Below are positions 2,706 through 60,329 of a DNA stretch of 60,329 nt, piece after piece. Below the pieces are notes generated by a model. The model made no database searches and was not told where the DNA came from. It was given only the letters and a program-made list of their open reading frames with translations. How positions within the stretch are numbered: the first letter of the stretch is position 1; the number at the start of each line of letters is the position of its first letter. Made by a program: the position numbers and the translations under genes. This stretch comes from Lentisphaerae bacterium RIFOXYC12_FULL_60_16 (GTDB taxonomy: Bacteria > Verrucomicrobiota > Kiritimatiellia > UBA8416 > YA12-FULL-60-10), in the NCBI GenBank assembly GCA_001803315.1, contig MHBQ01000039.1:1-60329 (forward strand), given 5' to 3'.

Positions 2706-2835
2706 AACGATTGCGATGATTGCTATGGTCTTTGTTATGAGCCTGGCGGCGGGCGGTTGCGCTTCCTACGGAGACTATGACGGTGCGCGAGCGCCTTACG
2801 GAACGGGTGGCGGTCATGGGGGAGGATGCCATTGA
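2698..2835 (+). CDS. 45-aa putative lipoprotein ending GHGGGCH
   Basis: MIRTIAMIAMVFVMSLAAGGCASYGDYDGARAPYGTGGGHGGGCH*; SD AGAGGAG; start overlaps the TolC end; not in ORF track. Confidence 0.65.
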   Translation: MIRTIAMIAMVFVMSLAAGGCASYGDYDGARAPYGTGGGHGGGCH

Positions 2836-2897
2836 GTCAACAATCGGACGGGTTGCGAACAGCGATCCGTCGCAGAGTCGGCAGAAAGGCGGTGAAG

Positions 2898-2969
2898 ATG
2901 CCGAGACTCATGATGTTGGTCTTTGCGTTGGCGGCGGCTGTGATCCTTGTGGGTTGTAACTGTCACTGA
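2898..2969 (+). CDS. 23-aa putative micro-lipoprotein (mature CNCH)
   Basis: MPRLMMLVFALAAAVILVGCNCH*; SD-like AAAGGCGGTG; n-region, h-region and LVGC lipobox; not in ORF track. Confidence 0.5.
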   Translation: MPRLMMLVFALAAAVILVGCNCH

Positions 2970-3030
2970 CGAGAAGCGTGGCGAGAGAAAACAGAAGCAA
3001 ATCGAAAAGTATAGAAAGGATTCGGTTATC

Positions 3031-3582
3031 ATGAAAAGCATGACATTAGGAATTGGTCTTTTGGTCGGCGGATTGTTGGCGGGATCGTCGGCGCTGGCGC
3101 AGGGTGGCGGACATGACCATCCGACGCACGCAGGCAAGCACGAGCCCGCGAGCCAGGAACAAAAAACGGAAATCAAATTGCAGACAACCTGTCCGGTCAT
3201 GGGCGGCGCGATCGACAAGCATCTGTATGTCGATCACGAGGGCAAACGCGTCTACATCTGTTGCAAGGGTTGTGAGGCGCCGCTAAAGAAGGATCCGGCC
3301 AAGTATATCAAGGCCCTCGAAGCCGAGGGCATTACCGTGGCCAAACTTCAAACCGAATGCCCGGTGATGGGCGGCGCGATCGATAAGGCGCTATACGTGG
3401 ATCACGCCGGCAAGCGAATCTACGTGTGTTGCCAGGGATGCATTGCCACGGTCCAGAAAGACCCCGCGAAAACCATCAAGTCAATGGAAGCGGCGGGGGT
3501 GGCTCTGCACCCTGCAGTCAAGGACGCCAAACCCGCCGAGCCGAAGAAAGAGGCCGTGGGCCACGAAGGGCATAAGCACTGA
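3031..3582 (+). CDS. Secreted His-rich protein with two YHS-like domains
   Basis: Signal peptide; two repeats QTxCPVMGGAIDK.LYVDH.GKR.Y.CC.GC; His-rich ends. Confidence 0.85.
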   Translation: MKSMTLGIGLLVGGLLAGSSALAQGGGHDHPTHAGKHEPASQEQKTEIKLQTTCPVMGGAIDKHLYVDHEGKRVYICCKGCEAPLKKDPAKYIKALEAEGITVAKLQTECPVMGGAIDKALYVDHAGKRIYVCCQGCIATVQKDPAKTIKSMEAAGVALHPAVKDAKPAEPKKEAVGHEGHKH

Positions 3583-3654
3583 TCAGAGGTGGCGGGTGGT
3601 GTTAGGCTCGCTTGACACCTATCCCCCAACACCTGACACCTGGAGGTATGGACT

Positions 3655-4161
3655 ATGAACATAGACCACAAAGATATGGCGTACAGGATTGTCGGCCTGG
3701 TCGGACTGGCGCTGTTGTTGGGGCTTGTCCTTTGGGCGCACCAGCCTCGCGGGTCAGCGACGCCGGCGCACGATCATGCCGATCCAGCGCATCACCGGCA
3801 TGCCGTATCTGGCAAACCGTTGGATGCGGAGCGCGCGGATACGCTGACACCCAGCGGCCAGGCAGAGAACGGTGTGCGAGTCGTTGACTACGACGCATTC
3901 CAGTACGGCTTCGACCCGGACCCCTTGGTCGTTCGCGCCGGGGAACGGGTGCGCCTGCAGTTAAAGAGCCGGGATGTCTCCCACGGCGTGATGATTCCCG
4001 AAGTGGACTTTTCGACGGATATCCCGACGGGTGAGCGCAAGGCGGCGGAATTCGTCGCGCCCGCTGAGCCGGGAGAATATCCGGTGTTCTGCAGTGTCTT
4101 TTGCGGTTCCGGCCACGGGGATATGACCGGGCGCATGGTTGTGTTGCCGGCCGAGCTATGA
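3655..4161 (+). CDS. Membrane-anchored cupredoxin with CuA-type site (COX2 C-terminal-like)
   Basis: DVSHG plus CSVFCGSGHGDM (H...CxxxCxxxHxxM); N-terminal TM, His-rich linker. Confidence 0.85.
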   Translation: MNIDHKDMAYRIVGLVGLALLLGLVLWAHQPRGSATPAHDHADPAHHRHAVSGKPLDAERADTLTPSGQAENGVRVVDYDAFQYGFDPDPLVVRAGERVRLQLKSRDVSHGVMIPEVDFSTDIPTGERKAAEFVAPAEPGEYPVFCSVFCGSGHGDMTGRMVVLPAEL

Positions 4162-4943
4162 ACCTGAATGAAATGAACGCCATCCGTAAACTAAAGAACC
4201 CCAAGACGCCATTGCTGATCCTGTTAGCGGCGCTGGCCATTTTCGGGCTTGTCGGCGGCCACGACGTTTCGCTGAAACTGGCGATTCTGGGGACTTCCCT
4301 GACGGCCGCCATGCTGGCCGAGTGGGCGCTTTTCGGCGCTGTGCCGCTCGCCGTCCTTCAGAGTGCGGCAATCAGCGGGGGAATCGTCGGCCTGTTGGTT
4401 GCGCCCGGCGCGGACCCACGCTTCGCATGGACGGCCGCCGTGCTTGCGATCGCGTCCAAGAAATTGCTCGTCTTTCATGAGGGCAAGCACATTTTCAATC
4501 CGGCGGCCTTCGGCCTGGTGGTCTCCATGATGATTTTCGGCAACCGGATCAACTGGTGGGGAAACACCTCAGCTGTGCTCGTGATCGTTGGCGGTGGATT
4601 GATCCTGATGCGACTACGGCGACTCTCACTGCCGTTCGCCTACTTCATCGCCAGAACGGCCGGCATTGTCCTGTTGACCAGCATTAACGCGGGACGCGCC
4701 GCCTTATTGCTACCGAACCTGTTTTTCGCTTTCATCATGCTGGTCGAGCCGAAAACATCCCCGGGCAAGCGCCCCGAACAATGGATATTTGGCGGGATAT
4801 GCGGCATTCTGGCAACAACATTTTATCACTTCGCGTCTGTATTCGAGGGCGATCTTCTGGCATTGTTAACCGTAAACCTACTGCGGCCGTGGCTGACCAT
4901 TCGGCTTGCGGCCTTGCAGGACAACAAGAGGACGAGTTCATGA
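4158..4943 (+). CDS. Stand-alone RnfD/NqrB-family membrane protein
   Basis: Multi-TM; IASKK...HIFNPAAFG and FAFIMLVEPKTSP motifs. Confidence 0.75.
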   Translation: MNLNEMNAIRKLKNPKTPLLILLAALAIFGLVGGHDVSLKLAILGTSLTAAMLAEWALFGAVPLAVLQSAAISGGIVGLLVAPGADPRFAWTAAVLAIASKKLLVFHEGKHIFNPAAFGLVVSMMIFGNRINWWGNTSAVLVIVGGGLILMRLRRLSLPFAYFIARTAGIVLLTSINAGRAALLLPNLFFAFIMLVEPKTSPGKRPEQWIFGGICGILATTFYHFASVFEGDLLALLTVNLLRPWLTIRLAALQDNKRTSS

Positions 4944-5168: not shown

Positions 5169-7139
5169 ATGAGCATGAAGGAAGCCATGGAAGGATTAGC
5201 GCGCGGCAAAAGAACCCTTCTTGCCGTCGCCCTGGCGACATTTGCGTTGGGATTTGCGCTGAGAGGCTGCTTATTTTCGCGTCATGTGTCCGAAAAAACT
5301 GACGGAGCCGGGCCTACGGCCCGGGCCGCCGAAGTCTGGACCTGCTCCATGCATCCGCAGATTCGTCAGCCCAAGCCTGGGAAGTGCCCGATCTGCGCCA
5401 TGGATTTGATCCCCGTGGCGGGCGACTCCGGCTCGGAGGCGGGCGTGCCCCGCCAGATAACGCTTTCGCCATCCGCGCGCAAACGGGCGGAAGTCGTTGT
5501 GGCGCCGGTGGAACGTCTTGCCGTGGAGGTTGAAATTCGCATGGTTGGCAAGGTACAATTTGATGAGACCCGCCTGGCTTATATCGCTCCGCGTGTCGCG
5601 GGTCGGATTGACCGGCTATACGCGAATTTTGCCGGTATGCCGGTGAAGTCCGGCGACCATCTGGCTGACATGTACAGCCCCGAGATGGTGGCGGCCCAGC
5701 AGGAGCTGCTGCAGGCCGTACAATCGGCGGGCGGCGCGTCCGCTTCCGCGACGCTGCTCAACGCCACACGTGAGCGTCTGCGGCTTTGGGGCCTGACGGC
5801 CGAACAGATCGCGGAGATTGAACGTAGCGGCCAGGTGCGCGATCATGTGACGTTCTATTCGCCGATCGGCGGGATCGTGGTGGAAAAGGAGGCGCGGGAA
5901 GGCCAGTACGTAGAGACCGGAATGCGCCTGTTTACCGTGGCGGACCTGACCCGCGTATGGGTACAGCTCGACGCCTATGAGTCCGATCTGGCATGGCTGC
6001 GTTATGCCCAGGACGTTGAGTTTCAGGCGGAGGCGTATCCGGGTGAAACTTTCAAAGGCACGATTGCTTTTATTGACCCGATTCTCAACCCGATGACGCG
6101 AACGGTCAAGGTGCGTGTCATCGTGGCGAATGCCGACGGCCGGCTGAAACCGGAGATGTTTGTCCGTGCGGTGGTCAAAGCCGCCGTGGCCGGTGACGGC
6201 AAGGTGTTGCGGAGCGATCTGCGCGGCAAATGGATCAGCCCCATGCATCCGGAAATCGTCAAAGACGGTCCGGGCGCCTGCGACGTATGCGGAATGCCCC
6301 TCGTGCGAGCCGAGGAACTGGGGTATGTTGACGCGGATGAGACGGATGTCGTCCTGCCGCTGGTGGTTCCCGTGTCGGCGCCCCTGGTTACCGGTAAACG
6401 CGCCATGGTTTATGTCGCTTTGCCGAAGGAAGAAGGCGTCTATGAAGGGCGCGATGTGGTCCTGGGTCCGCGGGCGGGCGACTACTACCTTGTGAAAGAA
6501 GGCCTGAAAGCGGGTGAGCGGGTGGTGGTCCATGGCGCCTTCAAGCTCGACAGCTCCCTGCAAATCCAGGGCAAACCCAGCATGATGGCGCCCGATGGCG
6601 GATCTGCGCCGGTCGAACACCTGCCCGGCGAAGCCTCGCCGGCGGTTCTTCCGGTGGTTGCGGCACCGGAAGCGTTCCGGAAGCAGGTGGACCTTGTCCT
6701 GGACAGCGTTCTGACCATGGCCGATGCGTTGGCCGACGATAGTCTGGAAGCCGCGCGTACGAACGCTTCTCAAGCCAAGAAGGCCCTGGCGGAGGTGGAT
6801 ATGTCTCTTCTCGCCGGGGATGCCCATGCGCGCTGGATGCAGTCGTTAAAGGTTTTGAACCTGTCTTTGGACCAGTTGATCCCGGCAAAAGACATCGAAT
6901 CTTTCCGCACCGCATTTTCTTCGCTGTCGTCCGAGATGGCGCGCGTCGTCAAGACGTTCGGTCCGGTCCGAACCGAACCGATCTATGAAATACATTGTCC
7001 CATGGCGTTTGAGAATCGCGGCGCCAATTGGCTGCAGAAGGACCAGGCTGTCCGGAATCCCTATTTCGGAAAATCCATGCTGATGTGCGGCGAAGTAAGT
7101 GAGACGATTCCGTCCGGGGGAGGTCACAGCCATGAGTGA
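5169..7139 (+). CDS. cusB: RND periplasmic adaptor, CusB-like, with heavy-metal-binding domains and C-terminal DUF3347-like domain
   Basis: WTCSMHPQI...CPICAMDL, SPMHP...CDVCGM, LKPEMF, HCPMAF...NPYFG..MLMCG. Confidence 0.9.
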   Translation: MSMKEAMEGLARGKRTLLAVALATFALGFALRGCLFSRHVSEKTDGAGPTARAAEVWTCSMHPQIRQPKPGKCPICAMDLIPVAGDSGSEAGVPRQITLSPSARKRAEVVVAPVERLAVEVEIRMVGKVQFDETRLAYIAPRVAGRIDRLYANFAGMPVKSGDHLADMYSPEMVAAQQELLQAVQSAGGASASATLLNATRERLRLWGLTAEQIAEIERSGQVRDHVTFYSPIGGIVVEKEAREGQYVETGMRLFTVADLTRVWVQLDAYESDLAWLRYAQDVEFQAEAYPGETFKGTIAFIDPILNPMTRTVKVRVIVANADGRLKPEMFVRAVVKAAVAGDGKVLRSDLRGKWISPMHPEIVKDGPGACDVCGMPLVRAEELGYVDADETDVVLPLVVPVSAPLVTGKRAMVYVALPKEEGVYEGRDVVLGPRAGDYYLVKEGLKAGERVVVHGAFKLDSSLQIQGKPSMMAPDGGSAPVEHLPGEASPAVLPVVAAPEAFRKQVDLVLDSVLTMADALADDSLEAARTNASQAKKALAEVDMSLLAGDAHARWMQSLKVLNLSLDQLIPAKDIESFRTAFSSLSSEMARVVKTFGPVRTEPIYEIHCPMAFENRGANWLQKDQAVRNPYFGKSMLMCGEVSETIPSGGGHSHE

Positions 7140-56788: not shown

Positions 56789-56820
56789 GACGGCGAATCC
56801 AGTAGTTGTGAGTTTTAAAC

Positions 56821-56861
56821 CAACGGCCGCACTCCGTGAAGGAATGCGGCCGTTGGTTTTT
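56821..56861 (+). terminator. Probable intrinsic terminator after hup
   Basis: CAACGGCCGC...GCGGCCGTTG stem followed by a T run. Confidence 0.6.
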
Positions 56862-56873
56862 CGGAGCAGCGAC

Positions 56874-58448
56874 ATGTCAAAATCGGATGAGGCGTCCAAG
56901 CCTGAATCAACCCCCAGCCTGGAGGAACAGATCAAGGAGATGTTCCGGGCTGCCAACCTGTCGTTTACCGGCGTCCCGCAGGCGGCTGAAGCCGCACCGG
57001 CTGCAGCGTCCGCCGCCGAGGATGCGGCCGCCGAGGACCGCCTGCGCCGGATCCGTGATTTTCGTCTGAAACCCCGTGATATTTGCGACTATCTCGCCCG
57101 GTTTGTGATCCGGCAGGACGATGCGAAGAAGGTGCTCGCCGTGGCGGTGTGCGATCACTACAACCATGTGCGGCGGTGCCTGGAAAATCCGGATGTCGCC
57201 CAGCGCGATTATTCCAAACATAACATCCTGATGCTTGGTCCCACCGGTGTGGGCAAAACCTATCTGGTCCGTTGTCTCGCGCAGTTGATCGGGGTGCCGT
57301 TCGTCAAGGCGGATGCCACCAAGTTCAGTGAGACCGGATATGTCGGGCGCGATGTGGAGGATCTGGTGCGGGACCTGGTGCAGGCGGCCAACGGGGATGT
57401 GAACCTGGCCCAGTACGGGATCGTCTACCTGGACGAGATCGACAAGATCGCCGGGCAGTCGGGGGCCGGCGGGCGTGACGTGTCGGGCCGTGGGGTCCAG
57501 GTGAACCTGCTCAAGCTCATGGAGGAGATGGATGTCAATCTCTTCAGCCAGACCGATCTCATCGGCCAGATGCGGGCGATCATGGATATGCAGCGGGGAC
57601 GGGACTCCGGCCGGCGCACCATCAATACGCGCCACATCCTGTTCATTGCCAGCGGCGCATTCGGTCCGTTGGCTGAGAAGGTCCGTGCCCGGGTGCGCAA
57701 CAGCCGGATCGGATTTTCCGAACGGGAGGCTCCGGAAGGGGATGAAGGCGAATACCTGCGGCAGGCCAGGACCCAGGATTTCATCGATTACGGATTCGAG
57801 CCGGAGTTCATCGGACGTCTGCCGGTCCGGGTGGTGTGTGATGCGCTTACGATGGAGGATTTACAGACCATCCTGTTGAAGTCGGAAGGCAGCATTCTCA
57901 ACCAGTACACGGATGATTTTACAGGATACGGGATCGAGCTGCAGGTTGAGCCGGAGGCGGTAGCGGCCATTGCCCGTTCCGCCGCGTCGGAAAAAACCGG
58001 GGCGCGGGGCTTGATGACCGTGCTGGAACGGCTGTTCCGGGATTTCAAATTTGAACTGCCGTCCTCCTCGGCGAGTTCCCTCGTGGTTACGCCGGCGCTG
58101 GTGGAGGAACCGTTGAAGGCCCTGGCCGCCTGCCTGGAGGAAAATGATATCCAGCGCCGTGACCAGCGCCTGGACACTGTGCATCAATATGCCGGCGCCT
58201 TCCAGTCGGAGCACGGCATCCAGCTGGTGTTCAGGCGTGAAACGGCCGAGTATGTCGTTTCGCTTGCTGAAGCCGGCAAACGGCCGGTTGCCGACTTCTG
58301 CCGGGATCATTTCCGGGACTTCGAATACGGGCTCAAGCTGATCAGCGGCAATACCGGCCAGATGCGGTTCACCGTCACACGGAAAATGGCGGAGGATCCG
58401 CGCGGAGAACTGTCGCGGCTGGTTGCCGCCAGTTTCCGCAAGGTGTGA
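56874..58448 (+). CDS. clpX: ClpX-like AAA+ ATPase without N-terminal zinc-binding domain, with C-terminal extension
   Basis: GPTGVGKT, GYVG, DEIDKI, DVSGRGVQ, IGF loop, TGARGL. Confidence 0.75.
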   Translation: MSKSDEASKPESTPSLEEQIKEMFRAANLSFTGVPQAAEAAPAAASAAEDAAAEDRLRRIRDFRLKPRDICDYLARFVIRQDDAKKVLAVAVCDHYNHVRRCLENPDVAQRDYSKHNILMLGPTGVGKTYLVRCLAQLIGVPFVKADATKFSETGYVGRDVEDLVRDLVQAANGDVNLAQYGIVYLDEIDKIAGQSGAGGRDVSGRGVQVNLLKLMEEMDVNLFSQTDLIGQMRAIMDMQRGRDSGRRTINTRHILFIASGAFGPLAEKVRARVRNSRIGFSEREAPEGDEGEYLRQARTQDFIDYGFEPEFIGRLPVRVVCDALTMEDLQTILLKSEGSILNQYTDDFTGYGIELQVEPEAVAAIARSAASEKTGARGLMTVLERLFRDFKFELPSSSASSLVVTPALVEEPLKALAACLEENDIQRRDQRLDTVHQYAGAFQSEHGIQLVFRRETAEYVVSLAEAGKRPVADFCRDHFRDFEYGLKLISGNTGQMRFTVTRKMAEDPRGELSRLVAASFRKV

Positions 58449-58713
58449 TCCCGTTTCTGCGGGTTGAGAAAACCGGCATGCAAGGTGCCGGTGAATCGGG
58501 GTTGCGGTAACGGACGGGCAATCGCTGGTCCAGGAATTACCCATCAGGGGCGAGAAGGGCGTTGATCAGCCGATGGGGGCGATAGTTTGTCTGTCCTCGG
58601 TGGGCACTGAGTTTCCTCGCCATGCCCCAGAGACTACCACTCCTACACGCTCAGCCTCACCACTCTTCTGTATTCTGCGGTCTGACCCCGTGATTCCGCT
58701 GACCGTCTGACCG

Positions 58714-58798
58714 GAACCGCCTGGTGCGGACCCGCATGCCAGGTGGTGTGGGACTCGTGGCTGGCTGAGTGACCCTCAGTCAGTCACGGGGACCCGAT
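58714..58798 (+). mobile_element. Group IIC intron 3' remnant (domains V and VI)
   Basis: GAACCGCCTGGTGCGGACCCGCATGCCAGGTGGTGTGG domain V; domain VI hairpin ending ACCCGAT. Confidence 0.9.
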
Positions 58799-58822
58799 TA
58801 GCCGATTTTCATCATTTCCAGA

Positions 58823-60163
58823 TCATATCGTGTCTTCATCAACATCTTCCTCTGGTACCAAGCCAGCAATTTGCTCGTCTGCCTGGGTAAATTGAATCTT
58901 CCCTTTCACAATCAATATCTTTACCAATGTGGGCACCGGGACGGTCGTCAGAACAGAAAGACAAACTATTGCATTGAAAAACGTCGCACTGATCATTTGA
59001 AGTTGCAAGGCTACGGCTGCGGCAGCCAGTGTGGCCGACAACTGGGGCACGGTCATCAACCCTGCACAAAGACCTTTCTTGTTTCCGAACCCGGACAGGC
59101 GCATCGCCAGCCAGCCGGAGGCAACCTTGCTTATTATCAAGCCAAACAACGTCGCACCGACAATCGCCGCATTTTCCCATGCTGACAATAGAATGCGAAG
59201 GTCGGTCTTCATTCCAATGGTAAGAAAAAGAAACGGAATGACAAAGCCGTAGCCGATCCCTTCTATCTTGCGATGAAGTACGTGACCTTGCTCCTGAAAC
59301 GCCCGAACCTCGACCATGGCCATGCCTGCAACGAAAGCGCTCACGATAATGCTTATGCCGATCAGTTCGCCGATAAAGACGATAGCCAGCAGCCCTGCTA
59401 GAAAGAAGGCTATACGCGCATCGTCATTGGGATGAAAACGGGAAAGAACCCGCCTCATGGCTTTGGGCAGAAGCCAAAGAGACAATGCAATGAAAGAGGC
59501 TATGACTGCTAAAAAGAGAACTGGAAACCATTTCCCTAAAACTTCGGGGCCGATATGGTCGAAGATCGAAATGCTTCCGGCGACTCGGCCCGGAATGGCA
59601 TGGCGTTTGAATTGGATACAGATCGCCAACAGAACCAAACTGGCAATATCCGTAATGACTGTTGATGCCAGGACAGCCACGCCGAAGCGGGTGTGGGTAA
59701 CTCTGAGTTCACGAATGACTGGAAACACGATGCCGACCGAGTGTGAAGCGAAAAGCGAGGCAAAAACCCATTTGCCTATGGTGTCTGAGGGCTCAAACAA
59801 TGCGTATACAGCAAAGCCGGCAGTGGCAGGAATGACAAAGGTGAGAAAGCTCAACCAGCCGACCGCCCGTTTCTCGGATTTAACAATCCGGATGTTGACC
59901 TCCATTCCCGCCAAGGCCATAAGAAAAATCAACCCGAGCAGCCCGAGCGCATCCAACACGACATAAATCTGCTCGGTCGGATAACCGCGCCCAAGAAAGC
60001 GGTTCAGATGTCTGATCAAGTCCAGTGAATTGGGGCCGATCACAATGCCAGTAAGCATTATGGCGACAACGGCAGGAATGTGCCATCTGCGAAGCAGTTG
60101 AGGCACAATCGCCACCAAAACCATCAGTACGAGAAAAATTATCAGAAACGTAAGACCTGCCAT
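58823..60163 (-). CDS. Cation:proton antiporter (CPA2), integron gene cassette
   Basis: GIVIGP, GLIFLMALAGME, AFVAG, PFLFLTIGM; lower GC; bounded by R' GTTCGCC and split R'' GGCTA|AC. Confidence 0.9.
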   Translation of the reverse strand: MAGLTFLIIFLVLMVLVAIVPQLLRRWHIPAVVAIMLTGIVIGPNSLDLIRHLNRFLGRGYPTEQIYVVLDALGLLGLIFLMALAGMEVNIRIVKSEKRAVGWLSFLTFVIPATAGFAVYALFEPSDTIGKWVFASLFASHSVGIVFPVIRELRVTHTRFGVAVLASTVITDIASLVLLAICIQFKRHAIPGRVAGSISIFDHIGPEVLGKWFPVLFLAVIASFIALSLWLLPKAMRRVLSRFHPNDDARIAFFLAGLLAIVFIGELIGISIIVSAFVAGMAMVEVRAFQEQGHVLHRKIEGIGYGFVIPFLFLTIGMKTDLRILLSAWENAAIVGATLFGLIISKVASGWLAMRLSGFGNKKGLCAGLMTVPQLSATLAAAAVALQLQMISATFFNAIVCLSVLTTVPVPTLVKILIVKGKIQFTQADEQIAGLVPEEDVDEDTI

Positions 60164-60186
60164 TACTAAATATCCTTTCTTTCACT

Positions 60187-60240
60187 GGCGAACTCCCGGC
60201 GTGTCCGGCGCGGGTCACCGCGTGCGGACGACGCCGTTGT
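60187..60240 (-). mobile_element. Integron attC site interrupted in R'' by a group II intron
   Basis: Plus strand GGCGAAC...CGGCGT/GTCCG/GCGCGG pairs with CCGCGT-G-CGGAC-G-ACGCCG (two extrahelical G) and ends TTGT|. Confidence 0.88.
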
Positions 60241-60329
60241 GTGCGCCCAGCATGGGCGCGTTGTAAATGGGGTGCAAGTCCCCGGTAGGAGGACCGACAC
60301 ATGAAAATGTGAAATAACTACCACTTGAA
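60241..60329 (+). mobile_element. Group IIC(-attC) intron 5' end (runs off window)
   Basis: GTGCGCCCAGCATGGGCGCG start directly after TTGT of the attC bottom-strand hairpin. Confidence 0.85.

Follow-up and report, generated by a model that had tools for sequence, protein, structure and literature searches.

An antiporter gene cassette flanked by two group IIC-attC intron ends in an uncultivated groundwater bacterium

A gene cassette with the 3' end of a group II intron on one side and the 5' end of such an intron on the other raises the question of whether two introns invaded two successive attC sites or a single intron was split. The question is posed by the last 1.6 kb of contig MHBQ01000039.1 (60,329 nucleotides (nt), hereafter the window) from Lentisphaerae bacterium RIFOXYC12_FULL_60_16, where the cassette carries a Na+/H+ antiporter gene. 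The window is the whole of contig C39 of a 188-contig, 4.09-Mb genome, which is 85.75% complete. An earlier note, made from the sequence without database searches, had placed an intron end (ACCCGAT/TAGCC) 24 nt from the antiporter stop codon and a second junction (TTGT/GTGCG) behind an attC hairpin upstream of the gene; reading the positions confirms these coordinates. The note offered two origins, two successive attC sites each invaded or a circular intron-bearing cassette opened inside the intron. It missed that the left intron copy is a 100-nt stump, that the contig ends inside a repeat and that no canonical intI is found in the genome. In the reading that we consider probable as a whole, the locus is the distal edge of a cassette array, the antiporter lies in an ordinary cassette, both attC sites bounding it were invaded separately, and the left copy has since been reduced to the stump (Table 1).

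Table 1 Features at the right-hand end of the window.
Feature	Position	Strand	Basis or remark
ClpX-like AAA+ ATPase gene, chromosomal flank	56808..58448	+	Pfam AAA_2 6.9e-29, ClpB_D2-small
Dispersed repeat of ~135 nt, outside intron and attC	58470..58605	+	copies elsewhere in the genome
Last flank bases before the intron stump	58676..58698	+	motif ATTCTG(C)GGTCTGACCCCGTGATT in common with metagenome contig L052
5'-truncated group IIC-attC intron stump	58699..58798	+	fold, covariation, identity to introns without an open reading frame (ORF)
Antiporter cassette 3' end	58799..58822	-	24-nt spacer; first 5 nt of own R'' (GGCTA/AC, top strand)
Na+/H+ (CPA2-type) antiporter gene, intact, 446 amino acids	58823..60163	-	PF00999 Na_H_Exchanger E 2e-52
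attC read on the bottom strand	60187..60240	+	bulged hairpin; R' complement GGCGAAC; intron-binding site 1 (IBS1) TTGT
First 89 nt of group IIC-attC intron	60241..60329	+	starts GTGCG; contig ends inside repeat

The attC site on the right is made up of GGCGAAC (60187-60193), with the crossover after 60192, a bulged stem-loop and TTGT at 60237-60240. Its fold has an energy of -20 kcal/mol and a z of -2.45 (4 of 200 shuffled sequences do as well), and its bulge pattern is that of the 5' exons in the relatives G014, G023 and G029. On the top strand the site runs GGCTAAC ... GTTCGCC, each box deviating once from the RYYYAAC / GTTRRRY consensus. Contigs C152, C184, C2 and C9 of the same genome bear attC-like sites of the same kind.

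Directly behind TTGT an intron begins, of which only the first 89 nt are visible because the assembly breaks in a repeat. The stretch 60237-60329 is 100% identical to two places on C152; its intron part, 60241-60329, matches C152 from 2797 down to 2709 and from 90 down to 2, as well as positions 418-506 of L052, all at 100%. A 121-nt Logan unitig of run X1 (depth 54.1) holds 60239-60329 and carries the copy 30 nt past the contig end. No sigma-70-like promoter was found on the minus strand of the visible 89 nt. The termini characteristic of the class, 5' GUGYG and 3' AY, are seen at both ends of the locus, as GTGCG at 60241 and as ...CCCGAT at 58798, and the same termini recur in nine 5' ends and twelve 3' ends of relatives.

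The left copy consists of a 15-nt linker, domain V (58716-58747), domain VI (58749-58796) and a terminal AT; its end, ...GGGGACCCGAT, stops at 58798. The fold of 58716-58796 shows a domain V helix interrupted by a 2-nt bulge and, after it, a domain VI whose A at 58792, 7 nt short of the intron end, is unpaired. At -57.3 kcal/mol (z -5.71), this fold is matched by none of 200 shuffles. We aligned 12 related 3' ends, taken from this genome, six relatives, two plasmids and one metagenome contig: 10 of the 24 predicted pairs show compensatory changes. Homology to every intron copy begins exactly at 58699, 15 nt before domain V, and 58606-58698 has no match to the intron, leaving the stump without a 5' half or a reverse transcriptase (RT).

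Scanning public metagenome contigs with 39 nt of domain VI yielded five contigs. One of them, L055, is identical to the window in 106 of 106 positions (58699-58804) and then continues into a different cassette. L054 is 99% identical to the stump and L052 98% over 108 nt, whereas the C152 copy reaches only 80%. L052 and L054 carry ORF-less introns of ~645 and ~600 nt that have kept domains I-III (RF02001, 100.9 and 89 bits). By its identity to these ORF-less copies, the stump is a recent, undecayed fragment of the ORF-less type. Its attC partner, both stem and TTGT, is gone. On L052 the flank bases 58676-58698 are found again ~300 nt before the intact ORF-less intron, 17 nt in a row matching exactly, which hints that a small cassette and the 5' part of the intron were removed by deletion.

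A complete representative of the family lies on C152, where a full-length 1928-nt intron runs from 2797 down to 870 (RF02001, domains 1-4, 96.3 bits; RF01998, 37 bits). Its ORF encodes a 431-amino-acid RT (TIGR04416, 394.5 bits at a cut-off of 300) with RVT_1 and GIIM and without an endonuclease domain. The introns of L052 and C152 are identical up to intron position 150. When the RT was compared with plasmids by tblastn, the top matches (401-404 bits, 50-52% identity over 90% of the RT) came from enterobacterial and Pseudomonas plasmids. One of these relatives separates dfrA14 from arr-2 in a class 1 integron; it is antisense to the cassettes, and its borders are TTGT/GTACGCCCAGCATGGG and ACCCGAT/TAACC. 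RT copies in Burkholderia and Caballeronia show a similar identity to the C152 enzyme.

Introns of the IIC-attC type are described as targeting the TTGT/T of R'' in the bottom strand of attC, against the direction of cassette transcription, and a 5'-truncated copy is on record (PMC7923331 for both, PMC3001079 for the target; these two papers and PMC8637638 are cited throughout from excerpts). We counted this rule over nine 5' junctions, five in the genome and four in relatives, and twelve 3' junctions. Eight of the nine 5' exons end in GT, all twelve 3' exons start with T, and a NNNNAAC box stands 54-71 nt upstream in seven of the nine 5' exons. When 11 5' exons were folded as DNA, seven gave hairpins at z <= -2.4, the window's among them; those without a good hairpin are the C42 and C45 fragments, the G003 copy and a short piece of the class 1 site. 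The full-length copy on C152, the covariation and the target rule together support the assignment made in the earlier note: by sequence, both ends belong to group IIC-attC introns that entered the attC bottom strand at TTGT/T and lie antisense to the cassette gene.

Several derivatives of the family lack the ORF: L052 418-1062, L054 ~152-745, L025 (relative G014) 2763-3406, L026 (G023) 2501 down to 1964, L057 (plasmid pLNU-11) 1762-2315 and L027 (G003) 1705 down to 1484. Five of them measure 538-645 nt, and those of L052, L054 and L025 keep domains I-III (RF02001, 89-101 bits). One is a 222-nt mini intron, whose first 124 nt are joined almost directly to domain V. Such derivatives were found in genomes from several families of one order and also on an IncP plasmid. 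In bacteria, group II introns that lack an ORF have been termed rare (PMC4424553), and a literature search returned no paper on ORF-less attC introns by title. Fragments of the other kind, 3'-truncated and ~150-165 nt long at 79-84% identity, lie on C42 (L002, 7184 down to ~7020) and C45 (L003, 4296 down to ~4130); the latter runs straight into GTTCGTCTGTCTCTGG, a sequence resembling the end of the ~135-nt repeat of Table 1.

The order seen in the window, namely intron 3' end, antisense cassette, attC and intron 5' end, is found again on C152, on contig C269 (L026) of the relative G023 and on pLNU-11 of Citrobacter freundii (NZ_KX863568.1, L057). Because it recurs at these three other places, two successive invaded attC sites are the simplest reading, and of the two origins offered by the earlier note this one fits best.

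The stop codon of the antiporter gene occupies 58823-58825, and the 24-nt gap to the intron end at 58798 holds, as 58799-58803, the TAGCC that opens the cassette's own R''; the remainder of its own attC is missing. Joining TTGT to TAGCC rebuilds GTTAGCC, and this pairs with GGCGAAC in six of seven positions across a rebuilt site of 59 nt. The length and the single mismatch are thus as the earlier note had them. Its use of this pairing in favour of a circle does not hold up. In a cassette integrated at G/TT, the first bases are the TTRRRY of what was its own R', and the last are its own R''. Since it carries both, the ends of any cassette are complementary. The antiporter cassette accordingly starts with TTCGCC, directly after the crossover G of the preceding attC. 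Among five cassettes compared, each with an intron end at its own R'', cognate R'' and R' match in 6 of 7 positions for the antiporter cassette, 7 for C152, 7 for pLNU-11, 5 for G023 and 7 for C184; non-cognate pairs give 3-6 matches of 7. As the rebuilt pairing is generic to cassettes, it lends no support to a circle or a split intron. By normal cassette structure, the stem at 60194-60236 is part of the neighbouring cassette on the right; the stem of the antiporter cassette itself would be expected to have stood on the left of its intron.

Several observations weigh against two separate invasions at the edge of a cassette array. L052 bears both the 5' end of the right copy (93 of 93 positions: TTGT and 89 nt) and the 3' end of the stump (98% of 108 nt); with both ends present in one intron type, two insertions and one intron later split are indistinguishable by type. 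To judge from these identities, the right-hand copy may be of the same type as the source of the stump's 3' end. The earlier note had held that a different intron on the right would speak against the circle; given L052, the circle is not refuted on this ground. The right copy is seen for 89 nt only, or 119 nt with the unitig. Rfam assigned no family at gathering score anywhere in the window, and over 58300-60329 gave only chance-level matches, with no group II intron even at E 10; the call of domains V and VI therefore rests on homology and covariation. The C42 and C45 fragments have neither the AAC box nor a good hairpin and are exceptions to the target rule. No canonical IntI was found in the genome, at its 85.75% completeness: the best TIGR02249 scores are 198.8 on C159 and 123.9 on C184, at a cut-off of 265. 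Last, the Logan contigs of four groundwater runs, compared with 57800-60329, include none that reaches from 58698 to 58800. The stump is a 101-nt repeat (58699-58799) at roughly three times the depth of the genome and is not bridged, so that only the genome assembler places the flank next to the antiporter.

This last point opens an alternative that we regard as unlikely: the contig may be chimeric across the repeat 58699-58799. The stump of the flank would then precede a different cassette, and the antiporter cassette would stand elsewhere in the array, behind a complete ORF-less intron. The repeat indeed forms a unitig of its own, with a depth of 39.4 in X1 and 50.5 in X3, against 11.8 for the flank and 12.2 for the cassette in X1. 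It can also be entered from 255 nt of ORF-less intron body, and at least one other exit has genome-like depth (10.9 in X1, 5.84 in X3), leading from 58799 to 60234. Yet the assembler broke at the longer 5' repeat and not here, so that reads or k-mers spanning the 101 nt may be presumed; no other contig of the genome carries the stump's 3' end; and, as a weak point, the depths of flank and cassette agree in all four runs. The flank-to-stump join is present in the Logan contigs of three runs, and it and the stump-to-cassette join are each real. A mis-join would leave standing the invasion of both attC sites that bound the cassette.

The exit from 58799 to 60234 (X1 and X3, side 25) joins the last 25 nt of the stump to CCGTTGT and an intron 5' end: it represents a further cassette with this same attC end or else two introns with only 8 nt between them. 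A second joint leads from 58740 to 60239 (X3, side 27). Both may reflect another cassette between the same intron ends.

Quite improbable, in our estimate, is that a single intron was split later. Here a circular, intron-bearing antiporter cassette would have been integrated by recombination inside the intron, through homologous recombination with a resident copy or an illegitimate break, and the stem at 60194-60236 would be the antiporter's own. Besides the two ends on L052, one contig of run X7 holds both (joint 60329 to 58699, side 32), and the rejoined exon ends make a well-formed 59-nt attC. That pairing, however, is equally expected for any cassette, and on C152 and pLNU-11 complete introns stand on both sides, with no opening needed. 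Both ends are multi-copy in the sample (depth 39 and 54 against 12), so that sharing them does not imply one molecule. A split also predicts a complementary truncated 5' piece on the right, and the genome has no such contig.

That the stump's domains V-VI and domains I-IV of the next copy form a working permuted intron, back-splicing on a plus-strand transcript to give a 1442-nt RNA circle (58799-60240) with the rebuilt attC bottom strand, is very improbable: the order is known from natural group II RNAs that are circularly permuted (PMC8637638), the structure of the stump is preserved and the ClpX-like gene reads in with no terminator-like site predicted on the plus strand, but each piece is identical to an end of ordinary introns, a whole protein gene lies in the gap, and the downstream copy's own domains V-VI, presumed present, would win in cis. 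We would be most surprised if such back-splicing (60240/60241 to 58798/58799) took place wherever same-sense introns, or a stump and an intron, bracket a cassette; if it did, a back-spliced RNA circle copied by the intron RT would provide an integrase-independent route to cassette circles.

With two separate invasions as the preferred reading, the history of the locus may be pictured as follows. The last 1.6 kb of the window would be the distal edge of a chromosomal attC cassette array, heavily colonised by one IIC-attC intron family, and the antiporter an ordinary minus-strand cassette with its own R'' 24 nt after the stop codon. At each bounding attC, the intron would have entered the bottom strand at GT/T, directly after the bulged stem-loop and antisense to the cassettes. 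It would reverse-splice into the folded single strand, and the RT of a full-length copy such as that of C152 would then copy it into DNA; priming might occur at replication forks, and ORF-less copies could use the RT of full-length copies in trans. For splicing, priming and the trans action of RT we draw on the literature on S.ma.I2 and class C introns. The left copy would later have been cut back as far as domain V, with loss of the rest of the antiporter attC, by deletion or by abortive, 5'-truncated retrohoming and repair. With the remainder of its attC lost, the antiporter is a last cassette, no longer excisable at its 3' side. Most integron introns are reported to lie in last cassettes (PMC3001079).

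Transcription may also play a part. Transcription of the ClpX-like gene runs toward the array and in the sense of the introns, and the plus strand has no predicted terminator-like site, so read-through could supply the introns with sense transcription. Integron-borne copies are said to lack it (PMC3001079), and sense transcription from the ClpX-like gene might explain the heavy colonisation.

Cassettes and introns of this kind are seen on other contigs as well. The earlier note had asked for an RT, further cassettes and intI beyond the contig end; the RT turned up on C152 and cassettes on C152 and C184, and the canonical intI did not. On C152, in the intron sense, an attC-like site is followed by a RelB/YafQ cassette on the other strand, by an invaded attC and by the full-length intron; after these come an antisense cassette (PIN-like, a weak match) and another invaded attC, and the intron copy that begins there is cut off by the contig end after 91 nt. 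C184 opens within the 3' end of a variant intron and continues with antisense cassettes, parted by NNNNAAC...GTTNNNN hairpins, up to a 394-amino-acid tyrosine recombinase (3358-4542, minus strand) oriented as the cassettes are. In TIGR02249, to which it scores 123.9 bits, the model positions 174-232, the region of the IntI-specific insertion, are unmatched; its best match is the XerA-type model NF040815 (144 bits, under the cut-off). This is an attC cassette array, integron-like, in which no canonical IntI was found. A genome-wide attC scan gave 119 candidates, many of them false and the invaded sites missed, and served as a pointer only. Nearly identical attC stems (GGCGTTCACCCTGAGCCGCG...GGCGATAGGGTGCGACGCC) stand on C184 (L010, 2603-2665) and on L025 of G014 (2700-2762), in different families of the order, which suggests a common, homogeneous attC type, as in large chromosomal arrays.

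The cassette gene is by sequence a foreign one: GC content drops from ~0.61 in the flank to ~0.50 in the cassette, and near-identical genes are scattered over several phyla. The protein scores 126.5 bits with TIGR00932, under the cut-off of 238. Full-length homologues with 64-85% amino-acid identity are found in metagenome-assembled genomes (MAGs) of several phyla, labelled Peribacteria, Victivallales, Kiritimatiellales, Riflebacteria, Desulfobacteraceae and Phycisphaerae. At 18 loci with relatives of the antiporter no attC follows the stop codon; there they are therefore ordinary chromosomal genes. DNA homology to the closest complete non-cassette genes sets in just after R', 29 nt before the ATG, and ends at the stop codon. 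A copy in a Victivallales MAG (L049, 3001-3731), 91.7% identical in nucleotides, breaks after codon 244 into AT-rich sequence and looks like an insertion or truncation. The comparison indicates a widely transferred gene that is packaged here as a cassette.

On the chromosomal side, the ClpX-like gene is conserved, at 67-73% nucleotide identity, in genomes belonging to the same taxonomic order. The ~135-nt repeat behind it has a Logan depth of 66.6, against 11.8 for the flank, and was not found in 30 relatives of the order. The window's copy ends in GTCTGTCC, the end of the family being GATAGTTTGTCTGTCCC. Copies 85-90% identical lie on C150 (two), C71, C9 and C152 (3663 down to 3552), with a partial one on C42 (7932 down to 7897); on C150 and C152 they form the 3' end of decayed IS200-like ORFs with the HUH motif. 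A second repeat family is seen at C160 1-89, C20 687 down to 596, C58 1-62 and L052 22-117, and also at ends of C34, C126, C157 and C167. It ends in TTAGTGCCATTC, followed by GTCTGTCCC or its complement, stands mostly at contig ends of the genome and on C58 abuts the inverted end of the ~135-nt repeat. The two repeats may be the two ends of one mobile element.

Intron type and insertion mode were already known, and no new mechanism is established here. What the locus adds is a clear natural case of IIC-attC introns in successive attC sites, in an uncultivated groundwater lineage and with full-length, ORF-less and stump copies side by side. It also illustrates that a rebuilt attC at a cassette between introns does not argue for a split intron, which is useful when intermediates of cassette formation are judged.

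The nearest known system is the S.ma.I2 / E.c.I7 type, together with the dfrA14/arr-2 intron on NZ_CP071026.1 (L058): both are inserted at TTGT/T of the attC bottom strand and antisense. L058 and the family of the window have in common the 5' end GT(G/A)CGCCCAGCATGGG and the 3' end ACCCGAT, and the RTs of L058 and C152, ~50% identical in amino acids, both have the maturase domain and no endonuclease domain. In contrast to the S.ma.I2 / E.c.I7 type, the introns here reside in an uncultivated bacterium from groundwater, no canonical IntI was found with their array, and the left copy is a stump. This genome also holds many intron copies, compared with the "only a few" stated for integrons in the excerpt of PMC3001079; published tables of IIC-attC introns may contain other multi-copy arrays. 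UHB.F1, from a soda-lake array, is likewise a 5'-truncated, antisense IIC-attC intron in an array of unknown integrase status, and its RT is reported to be closest to that of an uncultivated Verrucomicrobia bacterium; it keeps most of the RT ORF, whereas the stump has only domains V-VI (excerpt of PMC7923331).

As in the cassette-formation model of Léon and Roy (cited in the excerpts of PMC7923331 and PMC3001079), a gene is bracketed by IIC-attC introns, its homologues are non-cassette genes and the homology stops at the cassette borders. Unlike in the model, we see no terminator-targeted copy or recombination intermediate here, and R' and R'' of the cassette are already normal. Circularly permuted group II RNAs have the same strand order, with domains V-VI before domain I. 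As excerpted from PMC8637638, these are compact ORF-less ribozymes with adjacent halves, domains V-VI being directly followed by domains I-IV; at this locus the ends of ordinary introns stand 1442 nt and a gene apart. The layout of the locus is also that of pLNU-11, which has a 554-nt ORF-less copy (1762-2315), a 651-nt antisense cassette with seven of seven R''/R' matches, a 1914-nt full copy (2967-4880) and a third 5' end at 6636. There, both introns flanking the cassette are complete and borne on a plasmid, and in the conserved ends their sequences are only ~80% like those found here.

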